Of a stretch of DNA of 64,000 nt, positions 19,496 to 24,700 are shown in pieces. Below the pieces are notes generated by a model that worked only from the letters and a program-made list of their open reading frames with translations, was not told the origin of the DNA and did not search any database. The stretch spans positions 62,001-126,000 of the forward strand of contig CAJINV010000012.1 in the NCBI GenBank assembly GCA_905178155.1. Reading direction: 5' to 3'. The position numbers were made by a program, and so were the translations under genes. Source of the DNA: Amoebophrya sp. A120. Lineage: Eukaryota > Protista > Dinoflagellata. How positions within the stretch are numbered: position 1 is the first letter of the stretch; each line of letters opens with the position of its first letter.

Positions 19496-20628
19496 TTACT
19501 CGTCGTCCTCGTCCTCATCCTCTTCCTCCAAAGCCTGCACCGCGACGGTGTCCATTTCACGCTGCCCCTCCGGCGTGATCTTGCGGCCGCCGGTCTTCTC
19601 GTCGATTTCGATGATCCCGATCTCTTCCAGCTGCTGCATGCAGTAGCGGATAATCTTCCCGGAGGACTTCCGGAAGTGACTGGTGCAGGTGCCGCGGCGC
19701 TGCTGGCCACCGTACACCTTCCGGAAGGCACCGACGCCGGAGCCGCCACGGTTGTAGATGTGACGCGCGATGGAGGCCGCACGGATGTACAGCCAGTCCT
19801 GGTCCATGGGCGGCAGCTCGCGAGACACGTATGAAAATGAAAAATCCCCCCTCCCCATATTGAAAAGGTATGTTTCCGGAAATTTGCGTTGCTAATTTGT
19901 GGCCACAAATCAGGTTTGTCTTGCAAGAAGACAAGCGCAGAGGCATCCGCCCAATTGTGGAAGCGATTTGGCATGCTGCTGGTCCTAGAGGGTAGCCGTT
20001 TGCAATGCTGAACGACTAGACCTGAGCGCCCCCACCTAGCCTGGGGATCTGGCCGCAGTGCCTCTCTGCAATACAAAGCTGATTTTGTGTACACAAATCC
20101 AGCATCAGAAGTTTCCGTTTTGATATGGGGAGGGGGGATTTTTCGTTTTGATAACACGCCGGTCTTCACCACGTCGGCCCACGGCGGCAGCTCGAACTTA
20201 CCCTGGCGCTTCATGTGCTTTATGGAAGTGTTAGAATCGAAATCGACAAAGTTGAAATAATTTCTCATGCCAATATTGCAAGGCACGAAGTGCCTCTCTT
20301 GCCAGGATGGAAAGTGAGGCCGACTGTCAGCCTGTTTGGGGTCTGCGATAGAGCTGCTAAAGTAGCATAACAAAAGACGCCTTCTGTCCCCAAGCAGCAT
20401 TACAGACTGGATTTAGACGGTGCCGAAGTTTGTCATGCACCGCTTGAAAATTGGGCCTCCAACTGGTATCGATTTTATGCATCACAAATGAAATCGCTTC
20501 AACTTTATCGATTTCAATCCTGACACTCCCATATGCTTCGCCAAAGCAGTGATGAACTTCTGGGCCTTCACGTCCTTCACGGTGCAGGCGCGCTCGCACC
20601 CGAAGATGTGGTCGAAAGCGGTGGCCAT
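19496..20628 (-). CDS. RPS19: 40S ribosomal protein S19 (eS19), 161 aa, 3 exons
   Basis: Exons 20628-20534,20215-20154,19824-19496: [99 protein letters not shown]. Confidence 0.97.
19830..20153. mobile_element. Introner family A, RPS19 intron 2
   Basis: TIRs; DR acacg; removal gives KTGVSREL. Confidence 0.95.
20221..20533. mobile_element. Introner family E, RPS19 intron 1
   Basis: 36-nt TIRs; DR tgctt; removal gives AKHMKRQG. Confidence 0.95.
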
Positions 20629-21705
20629 TTTGGAGCGGTTTTTGATGATGATTATGGTGATGCAAATAGCAGTTTTTGAAGATGATTATAGAACAAGAGT
20701 TTTGTCGTAGACAATTAGAATTCAGTCGGATGTGAAACACAACAACCCACAGCTGCAGCTAGAGAAAAGTAATGCACGTCCTGGAGAAATTGAAATTAAA
20801 GTTGTTGCAAGGATAGGCAATAATTTGATCATGGTGTTGTGCACGAATAGGAATGCACACCATTTCAAATCTTCATCCACATCGTCGTGCACATGTGTTT
20901 TGCTTGAGAGCAACCCAAGAAGTTGGAGCAGCTTTGATATCAAGAACCAGAAAATACTTTACTTTGATCATCTGTACTTTGTTGAGCTAGCAGTAGCAGC
21001 CACTGCCACGAGAACGGAAAGGGTCTTTTTGTGCATGGCAATTTCTGGGATGAGATCATCTTTATGGTGCAGATGCACGTTGTTGTAGCAGGTACATACA
21101 TTTTCTGTACATGTACATCAACAAAAAACGATAATACCCACTGGCACTGCAGCATGAACATCTGTTTCCATAGTACTACGATCGATCGCAGATCTACTTC
21201 TTTTGCATCTTTGTGGTGCGGCTTAGTTGTACTTTGATCATGATACATAACACCATTAAACAGAAAAGGATCGATTTCTGGGCGAAGCGACGAACATATA
21301 AGACTTCTTGAAGAACAAGAAGATGTTCGCATCAATCATCTTGTTACAGGAGATTCAAAAATTTATTTTTTCATCGAAGAACAAGTGAGCCAGAAGGCCG
21401 CCCGTTCAGCTCGTGCAAGGCGAGGCTCCCGCCAACAGGCTTCTTTTTCTTTTCGTGGTGGTGAATGCAGTAGTTGCAGTTGCATTTGCACTTCGCGCGT
21501 CTACGCCGCGTCTTCTTGTGCTTTATCGATGCGCTTGCGAACATGAATAGCACCGTGTATGAAAATACGAACGACAGCCAAGGCTTCACGCCCGCCCTCA
21601 CTACAGAGTCACAGAGCGCGGCGTCGCGATCTTACAAAATGAGAACTATGCGCAAGAACGATGATGGTCAGGCTCTTATAAAGGCGCAAGAAACAAACGA
21701 ACAAG

Positions 21706-24700
21706 TCAGGCTCTTTTAAAGGCGAGATTCTGCAAAGCCTTTTTGGTCTGCTTTTTCTTTTGTTTCTGCGCTTGGTTCTGAGCGTCGGGATTCTGCATCG
21801 AGCTGCTACTCGCGCCACTACTGGATGCACCTGCCCCAACATGCCCTGGATTCACCTGCCCCCCCGGTCCGACGGTGTGCCACCCCTGCTGCTGCAGGGG
21901 GACCGATCTGGAGGGCTTGGGCCGGTTTTGGGTGGAGGATGAGGAAGCTGCTGTTGCTGTACTAGTACTACCGGCATTGTAGTTATTCTGCGGAGGATAT
22001 CAACAGGAAAAATCCTCCCTCCCCGTATCAAGATGGCGAAACGTCTGACGCTAGATTCGCGCACACAAATCCGATTTGTCTTGCAGTAAGGCAGCGTAGC
22101 CAGATCCTCGGCCTAAGTAGGGGCGTTCGGGTCTAGCTGCTTAGCATTACAAACGGCCGCCCCCTAGGCGCAACAGCATGCCAAATCGCTTCCATAGTGG
22201 CGCCGAAACCTCTGCGCTTGTCTTCTTGCAAGACAGACGCGATTTGTGGTCTCAAATCAGCAACGCAAATTTTCGGAAACATGCCTTGTCGATATGGGGA
22301 GGGAGGATTTTTCCTTACAATAGAGGACCTCTTGATGAGGAAGAAGATGCACCAGCTCCACCACGACCAGTGTTGTACTGCGCGCTATTGACATTTCCTC
22401 GCGGTGAATTATACACCCCGCCGGCGCCGCTACCAGCGTAAAGAGACTGCCCCAGGGTCGGGAACGCGGCTGGATCCTGGTTATTTCCTCTCAACATCAT
22501 GGAGCTACTAGAGCTACCCGCAGCAGTGGTACCACCACCGCCTCCAGAGCCTGTCTTTGTTTCCTCTGGCGGGACGGGTTTTTTGCCCTCTTTGTGCACC
22601 AGATAGCGGTGGCTCAAGTAATCGTACTCCGTACCGAACAGACAGGTTTTCATGTGCCAACACTTCACCTCGGTGCAAACAAAGTGGTTCGCTTCGTAGT
22701 GGTAATAGAGGAAATCGTAGTTCTGGAACCAGACATTTGTGGTGACCCCTTCCTTGTCGCACTGTATGCACTTTTCGTGGCAGTCTCGCAAATGCTTCTG
22801 CGCTTCCGTGGTGGAGTAGAAGTAGCCCACGCGACTGAAGTCGCAGAACTTGCACAAAACGTGCTGCTCTTCCATGTGTTTTTCCAACTCCGACAGGCTC
22901 GAACCACCAGCAATCGGCTTCCGCGGGTCGTACTTGGGCAAAAGCATCGGAAACTCATTCTGGTGGGTGAGGCACAAATGGCAGACAGTCTCCTGCCCAA
23001 AGTTGTCGTGCTGGTTGCGCATGTGTTTCGACAGTGTTAGTCGCTTTCGCTGTTGCTCAAGCTTATCGACGTCCTCGCATATGATATTGTTATCTGCGTC
23101 TTGCGAGCTGTTATAGTTTCCAGGTGAGCTGCCCGTGGCTGCAGCTGCATTGGCGTAAGTAGAAGATGCTCCTTGTTTTTCCTTTCCCTTTCTCTTTCCG
23201 TTCTTTCCACCAGCATTTTCCTCATTCCCAGTGTTCTCTCCGGAGGTGGTGTTCTGCCACTTGCAGTTCGCGATGGGGCAGAGGTTAAAATTGACCAACT
23301 TTTTAAAAAAACCCACGTTTGGCTCGTAGTCGCTGCCCTGCACTAAGTGCACGAAGCACTCTAAGGAATCCTCCCAGCGGATCAAATGCAAAAATGTCTG
23401 GGTCTGGAAGAATGCGCGATTTGTCATGCTGCTTTTCCATGACCCATGAGGTCTGGAATGCAGGACCTAGCGTGACAGATTCTGCGGGACCTTTCTCATG
23501 CCTATCCTGCATGAGAAACTCCCTCCCGACTTGGTCAAAACTGGACGACTTTTGGTAATCATGCAACACAGATTTTTGCATGCTGCAGATTTAGCATGAC
23601 AAGTTCCAATCTTCCAGACCCAGACATTTTTACATTTGATACAGCGGAGCTTCGCGTGCAGAGAGAATGGCTTGTTGTCCCCGCCGTCGGCCGGGTAGAT
23701 TTTGAAACTGGTGCGTATGCATTGCAAAAGTATCGTACTAGTACAATTTGCATTACAAATTTGCTCAGCATGAGAGCTGGATTTTGTCATGCTGTTCTAC
23801 CATAAGGACAAGACTTGTCATGCATAATCGCAATTAGTACAAGCAAAATACTTTTGCACAGGATAGTGTAGTTCCAGTCCTGCTTGTCTTTGTCGAGAAG
23901 CAAATCGTATTTCGGATTCGACAAGACGACCGGATTGTCCATGTCCTTCACCTCTTTGAAGCACAGCGGGCACTCGTTTTTCCGCAGAATAAACTTGTGC
24001 TTCAGAAAGCAAATCGCGCACACCTGCGGGAAGTGGTTGCAGCTAAAAAAAGCGAAGAAGGAAGTGAGGTTCTCGTGCTCACCGCAGCACAGGTGACAAA
24101 CCGGCGAATCGTTGGATTTGCTGGACGTGCTACTATACCGGCGGTAGGAGGGAAGGAGGTTTGCGGGTTCTTTAGGGGTGGGGAGGGGAGCAGTGGATTT
24201 GTTTATGTTTTGCATCATGGCGTTTTCATTTTTACGCATGGCATTAGTTTTTGATGTCCCATTCTTTCCGACCCCGTCTGGGCGACGTTCTAGGCCTCGC
24301 CCTTGGCTGGTAGACGACGCCGAGCTGCTGGCACTGCTCGTTCTTCGGAGCGGCGGGGCGAATACTTCGGCCTGCTGCTGCTGTGCCGCGGCTCCGCTAT
24401 TACCGCGCTGCGACGAGAGAGGGAACCCCTGCTGCATTGGGCTTGGCGCAGCACTGGAGCTTTGCGTCTGCTCCTCCCTCGCAGAATCGTACTGGTCGCC
24501 GTCGCTGTCAGAGTTGTTAATATCTCCGCGATTATACGACGGCCGGCCGCTCGACGGCACCACGTCCTCAAAGCTGCTGGCCCTGGTTCCGGTTGTCGTT
24601 CGTTGCATCGTCGAAATACCGACCGCCTTCTTCTTCTGTTGCTTCCTCCGCTCCTCGTTGGCCATTCTGAGTTCTTCTTCTTGCAAGTGGGCCGCCAGCT

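Follow-up and report, generated by a model that had tools for sequence, protein, structure and literature searches.

Both orientations of an introner family are removed exactly from RNA in Amoebophrya sp. A120, with a candidate fixed cut register

Our analysis revealed that an introner family of the dinoflagellate Amoebophrya sp. A120 is spliced exactly out of RNA in both orientations. The DNA analysed, hereafter the window, is a stretch of 64,000 nucleotides (nt) of contig CAJINV010000012.1 (positions 62,001 to 126,000, assembly GCA_905178155.1), and the family, termed family A, has four copies in it. The class of element is known; what appears to be new is removal in both orientations with free terminal bases, together with a candidate fixed register of cutting. 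Both-orientation removal of one family likely confines the removal signal to the symmetric ends of the element.

The family-A copies in orientation 1 lie at 584–909 (326 nt), in an intron of a GST-like gene, and at 19830–20153 (324 nt), as intron 2 of the gene for ribosomal protein S19e. Those in orientation 2 lie at 21998–22322 (325 nt), in an intron of a C2H2 zinc-finger gene, and at 58516–58837 (322 nt), in a predicted intron of a DUF268 gene that was examined by frame test only. All four have TA..TA ends and a perfect 5-nt direct repeat, which occupies 19825–19829 and 20154–20158 around the 19830 copy and 21993–21997 and 22323–22327 around the 21998 copy. In pairwise comparison, the 584 copy aligned plus/plus with the 19830 copy, and the 21998 copy with the 58516 copy. 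Cross pairs aligned over their full length only as reverse complements, at 70–84% identity, with local alignment scores on the same and opposite strands of 47 and 334 for 19830 against 21998 and of 89 and 380 for 19830 against 58516. Homology of the four copies spans the whole element. The original prediction, which called for this alignment, had placed the interiors of 584 and 19830 opposite to those of 21998 and 58516, and the alignment agrees. Translation likewise confirmed its pseudo-open reading frame, which runs on minus in the 19830 copy and on plus in the 21998 copy. As a gene this frame was rejected, since it is merely element DNA translated and is interrupted by a stop in the 58516 copy.

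A strict scan for TA..TA elements with direct repeats detected 25 in the window and 0–1 in each of 10 Markov shuffles; relaxed matching with curation raised the number in the window to 37. The elements have the features of a MITE (miniature inverted-repeat transposable element), that is, of a non-autonomous transposon with terminal inverted repeats: such repeats, a target duplication of fixed length, many dispersed copies and no coding capacity. No Pfam match to a transposase or integrase was found among the 64 window frames scanned.

Removal from RNA was observed in two RNA-type contig sets from one sample (X1 and X2) and in raw RNA reads of a run from another study (X9). The RNA nature of X1 and X2 is an automated guess, backed by a removed GT-AG intron and by empty bins; for 300–20250, the joints considered are the 15 of 17 listed from their contigs. 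The 584 copy is bridged by joint 578→910 (depth 4.4 in X1 and 3.9 in X2) and the 19830 copy by joint 19824→20154 (368.5 and 286.4). For the 21998 copy, in the other orientation, X1 contig pieces stop at 21992 and restart at 22323 with no letters between, and 32 raw X9 reads carry the letters of 21979–21992 ahead of 22323. In all three, the removed unit is exactly the element plus one 5-nt duplication. Junctions were thus found for both orientations, and the outcome that would have spoken against the original prediction, spliced reads for one orientation only, did not occur. Altogether, 20 junctions were examined, of which 18 were direct (joints, pieces or loose ends) and two, those of the zinc-finger gene at 23380 and 23716, were inferred from 69 unlisted contig letters. 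All 20 RNA-supported junctions, which lie in 300–25500, belong to TA..TA elements, one that reads GT-AG included; no plain canonical intron occurs among the RNA junctions listed for this stretch.

All four hosts lie on the minus strand, as originally predicted; the support comes from Pfam, from spliced models and, for the 21998 host, from both ends of its transcript. The S19e gene (19496–20628, minus, three exons, Pfam PF01090, RNA joints, spliced model) is split by two TA..TA elements, family-A 19830–20153 and 20221–20533 of another family. The codon at either copy of the 19830 repeat falls on position 37 of the Pfam profile, and exact removal of the element therefore restores colinearity. 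The zinc-finger messenger RNA (mRNA; 21444–25511, minus) has its poly(A) at 21444 and a complementary DNA (cDNA) 5′ end at 25511 in X9 raw reads and an X1 contig, which places this host on minus. The 5′ tag on the cDNA reads is presumably a template-switch oligo. Without its four elements (21998, 23380, 23716 and 24735) the mRNA has a 923-codon frame, which we take to be ZNF598/Hel2-like. The S19e and C2H2 zinc-finger identities rest on Pfam; the 584 host has a GST_N Pfam match below the cut-off, on minus, and Pfam places the DUF268 host of 58516 on minus.

Spliced models gave a longer frame on minus than on plus in five of the seven regions modelled, and the two ties were settled by Pfam (S19e) and by a longer model (the short 58516 stretch). 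Removal of 11 elements across 56300–63700 opened a 1348-codon minus frame reaching DUF268, and with 58516 retained or cut 1 nt off the frame was only 1143–1150 codons. Removal of 58516 thus restores the frame, as the original prediction had held for all four copies, and for this copy the reading frame is the sole support. The same 56300–63700 stretch appears as one minus gene of approximately 1350 codons, with DUF268 at its end and 11 element blocks of at least four families in both orientations.

A second family, of approximately 150 nt, is likewise removed in both orientations. In orientation 1 are 6349–6498 (joint 6343→6499, minus-strand transcript) and 1399–1562 (joint 1394→1564, imperfect direct repeat), and in orientation 2 are 12017–12166 (joint 12011→12167 in X1 and X2, minus-strand transcript) and 23716–23865 (joint inferred from length). 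The orientation ratios of three families in the window were 2:2, 5:6 and 6:3, one call in the third being weak.

As a stand-in for a genome-wide orientation count, one pattern scan yielded 45 loci outside the window, of which 44 could be bounded and 40 of these 44 had perfect 5-nt repeats. When the element plus 5 nt was removed, 16 of the 44 copies retained an open stretch of 200 nt or more on either side, compared with 0 and 2 for removals 1 nt off. Orientation relative to the host strand split 9:14 (p=0.40) among the 23 of 43 full-length copies that could be called; the other 20 had no strand call, and of the two remaining loci one runs off a contig end and the other could be aligned just partially. 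Pfam backs two of the 23 host strands, one per orientation, and the rest follow from the coding model and frame length. Two outside family-A copies, at L014:1285-2457 and L004:749-1936, sit in opposite orientations in GH5 cellulase and histidine phosphatase genes. Viral contigs contained no match to the same element pattern.

Every equivalent cut position was listed for each junction. For 16 of the 20 junctions, GT/GC/GA-AG or AT-AC ends are possible in no register; all three RNA-tested family-A copies are among these, and 58516 likewise lacks such ends. Terminal dinucleotides of the U2 type (G[TCA]..AG) or AT..AC were accordingly found neither in these 16 nor in any family-A copy. Of the remaining four junctions, one permits GT-AG and three permit GA-AG. 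At each position of the direct repeat, the 59 oriented elements between them show every one of the four bases, without enrichment of a donor-position G or an acceptor AG. The element ends are conserved: T, A and T in 59, 59 and 57 of the 59 at the 5′ end and A, T and A in 57, 59 and 58 at the 3′ end, with A at positions 11–14 in 52–55 elements.

Imperfect repeats reveal which repeat copy the mRNA keeps. With an offset of −1, the cut falls one base ahead of TAT and four bases past ATA, and all 20 junctions are accommodated; 19 agree with offset 0 and 17 with offset −2. Three junctions rule out offset −2 and beyond, and at 17385–17649 (third family, approximately 265 nt, imperfect direct repeat, joint 17379→17650) and 14716–15110 (joint 14710→15111) the cut can lie only directly at the first T or 1 nt ahead of it. 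A single register at offset −1, in which the removed unit runs from N-TAT to ATA-NNNN, is therefore probable. The genome paper of Farhat et al. (2021) leaves the A120 splice position open, and in its Table S4 the nine predominant A120 non-canonical end pairs are all of the form N-T..NN, with every first base and none TA (PMC7789003), as offset −1 predicts. The nine end pairs of strain A25 all start with TT and A25 repeats start with TTA (PMC7789003), a pattern that would likewise give U+2 and A+3. The degenerate element at 1035–1350 (joint 1029→1351, one X1 contig), whose removal reads GT-AG, does so in the offset −1 register.

The original prediction also held that orientation independence implies recognition of the terminal stem or of DNA symmetry. 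The independence is real and a role of the stem is plausible; DNA symmetry found no support, and a non-polar machine is not implied. Since both orientations are removed, the element interior holds no needed polar signal, and the removal code likely resides in the symmetric ends only. Owing to the inverted repeats, an element in either orientation begins with TAT and finishes with ATA, so that a polar spliceosome could read both orientations. For the same reason, orientation alone neither separates a reading of motifs from one of the stem nor excludes a polar machine.

Folding predicts a long, strong stem for either orientation (z −6.7 and −6.1). Its outer three pairs are predicted to be mostly open in 584, 19830 and 23716 and its inner pairs firm; positions 4–7 accept mismatches, and pairs are firm from approximately position 8 inward. 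It is therefore improbable that distance from the stem base alone sets the position of the cut, and short end motifs probably matter too. Two removed elements, 1035 and 12778, have no predicted in-register end stem; an alignment-based consensus fold was poor (23 shared pairs), and folding energy of the sense and antisense strands showed no useful difference. The modelling suggests that a stem is available in both orientations and may contribute to removal.

We give about an even chance to a symmetric-end code, consisting of one base plus TAT, ATA plus four bases and the predicted stem, that is read on RNA by a modified U2-type spliceosome. The element would have been inserted as DNA by a transposase or integrase, through a 5-bp staggered cut and in random orientation. 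In the transcript, the inner stem, from approximately position 8 inward, would join both ends and may replace intron definition by U1 and U2AF. A 5′ cut 1 nt before TAT would place U+2, A+3 and U+4 as in a GTAT donor, and an A of the final ATA, at position −7, might, more speculatively, serve as a branch point at a fixed distance from the 3′ cut. A120 has U2, U4, U5 and U6, and no U1 was detected in it (PMC7789003); the stem could substitute for U1. There are precedents: spliceosomal introns of Giardia have a [G/C]TATGT donor, with TAT likewise at +2 to +4, and a fused branch point and acceptor (PMC10711314), and the non-GT/AG introns of Fritillaria are linked to the spliceosome (PMC13326754). 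Irrespective of the machine, we lean slightly towards a second splicing code, in which N-UAU and AUA-NNNN are read on folded RNA and terminal dinucleotides are ignored, so that removal of any such 5-bp-duplicating transposon is scarless at any site and in either orientation. Such a code would be read by a spliceosome that lacks U1 and 3′ AG docking, or else by a new nuclease–ligase pathway.

Several points weigh against reading the ends in this way. Free end bases are hard for a spliceosome, and no spliceosome known to us disregards +1, −2 and −1 altogether. The bulk of the RNA joints is taken from a single sample's contigs, with raw reads only for 21998 and 24735. Offset 0 is excluded solely by junction 1394→1564, which stems from one X1 contig of depth 4.4 and is also readable as a GA-AG intron at offset −3. 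The Table S4 pairs may reflect aligner choices, and one GT-AG among 36 window elements is close to chance (1 in 64 each). Conservation of the TAT ends may serve a transposase instead of splicing, and the element at 23380, with its last A changed to C, is still removed, as judged from its inferred joint. Selection for RNA pairing was not seen: G-U and A-C mismatches, counted in transcript sense, stood at 32:34 in elements outside family A and at 5:9 for rare stem variants within it. The pooled count favoured A-C (53:88), an excess that arises because the family-A arms are asymmetric.

In a tentative alternative, not far behind the first reading yet less probable than not, the same end code is read by a separate structure-guided endonuclease together with an RNA ligase, a route that has been put forward for Euglena's nonconventional introns. 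The fully free terminal dinucleotides and the strong, long stem predicted in both orientations suit such a pathway, whose enzymes are putative. The Euglena code is similarly built of a spacer, complementary triplets and a spacer, pairing being required there, and its introns share terminal pairing (predicted for the present elements), slidable direct repeats and a proposed MITE-like origin with the present elements (PMC12501133). Circular excised introns are cited in the Euglena context as pointing away from a spliceosome (PMC12621601), and U1 was not detected in A25 and A120 (PMC7789003). On the other hand, TAT falls in this register precisely on donor positions +2 to +4, and G-U is not in excess over A-C. 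In addition, 15% of A120 canonical introns share the repeat layout (PMC7789003), suggesting common handling. The triplets also differ: Euglena, an unrelated lineage, has CAG/CTG with spacers of 3 and 5–6 nt (PMC12501133), in contrast to TAT/ATA with likely spacers of 1 and 4 here. The Euglena motif pair N3-CDG ... CHG-N5-6 was not found, the conserved triplets being TAT and ATA. The Amoebophrya elements therefore work alike without being members of that class, and the word “orientation” does not occur in the main text of PMC12501133.

It is unlikely that there is no single register and that some elements are GA-AG or GT-AG spliceosomal introns, with the others removed by stem-guided cuts at varying offsets. 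Four of the 20 junctions are readable with GT-AG, GA-AG or AT-AC ends, and the legend of Farhat Fig. 3 calls the splice sites variable relative to the hairpin (PMC7789003). However, one offset fits all 20 junctions, and the removed length is always the element plus 5 nt.

Strong hairpins with flanking 5-nt repeats are a classic substrate for template switching. Every joint dataset is cDNA, and the joints might accordingly be switches of reverse transcriptase across the hairpin between the direct repeats. We consider this very improbable and rejected it as the main explanation: three junctions share 1 nt and one shares 2 nt, yet exactly the element plus 5 nt is removed; only exact removal brings S19e into colinearity with its Pfam profile; and exact removal opened frames in outside copies far more often than cuts 1 nt off, by the counts given above. 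Least probable of all is precise excision from DNA before transcription, like that of internal eliminated sequences and guided by DNA symmetry; transposon-like ends and duplications and the indifference to orientation would suit it, but DNA-type contigs (X5, depth 43–46) keep the elements, running unbroken across the boundaries at 19830, 20533, 21998, 22322, 23865 and 24735, and heritable excision in a single haploid nucleus would presumably lose the element, so that this explanation, too, was rejected. These X5 contigs drop rare variants, and 1012 joints lie outside the listing.

The window elements fit the way in which the genome paper defines Amoebophrya A120 introners, with which they share TAT-starting inverted repeats running into an A stretch, direct repeats (3–5 nt in the published set), a hairpin, the lack of a splice consensus and co-oriented genes; no structural difference from the window elements was apparent (PMC7789003). 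In the window, the direct repeats lie over the exon–intron borders, and the removed family-A introns lack GT-AG ends, as in A120-type introners. The searchable text of PMC7789003, figures aside, contains no statement on element orientation, its readable mentions of orientation concerning gene order. Introners of Polarella glacialis and Aureococcus anophagefferens are likewise direct-repeat-flanked DNA elements that make introns either way. They have G[TCA] donors and AG acceptors and a one-orientation bias (10.1101/2020.10.14.339549), whereas the present elements have free ends, and the small sample counted above (9:14) revealed no bias. Fritillaria borealis also has non-GT/AG introns that derive from transposons, carry inverted repeats and duplications and are tied to the U2 spliceosome; it prefers AG-AC and AG-AT ends and has a conserved U1 (PMC13326754, PMC11282704), in contrast to the absence of preferred ends here. 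One introner survey allowed opposite-orientation insertion in its methods (PMC9860276). Another demanded same-orientation matches (PMC12130899), so that families such as these would be expected to be split by it. In the Amoebophrya introner literature, within main texts that are openly accessible, neither orientation independence nor a fixed register was found to be described.

The window has further features. At 57749–58087, two same-family elements of approximately 150–180 nt stand back to back in opposite orientations, approximately 6 nt apart; an identical 5-nt repeat occurs three times, and the frame stays intact when the entire block and 5 nt are taken out. The 985-nt element at 54101–55085 has second-family ends, a perfect 5-nt repeat and a GC-rich interior with frames of 168–262 codons on both strands and no Pfam match, and may carry inserted cargo. 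A segment of 251 nt that opens with ATC repeats occurs at 26856–27106 and 50334–50584 with 97% identity, and appears inserted within two different introners (26632–27106 and 50284–50801). For a third-family piece of 87 nt at 23555–23641, 115 reads in run X8 join it to unrelated flanks, which indicates that at least one partial copy elsewhere is retained in a transcript. A truncated third-family element lies at 47182. The 36290–48430 block contains long direct repeats of up to 981 nt at 98.7%, without Pfam matches of note, as well as a 14/21-nt tandem array (42028–42502), an A-rich repeat near 43000–43800 and a gap of Ns (40932–41063). An uninterrupted 1933-codon minus frame at 27805–33606, without a Pfam match or a detected introner, is unusual in so element-dense a window.

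How approximately 60% of the introns of Amoebophrya A25 and A120, which are non-canonical, are removed is a question posed by the genome paper (PMC7789003). If the fixed register is true, the published “variable” borders become one precise substrate, and the register explains how transposons could colonise coding sequence at any site and on either strand without leaving a scar. Removal in both orientations, together with the candidate register, makes this open mechanism directly testable.

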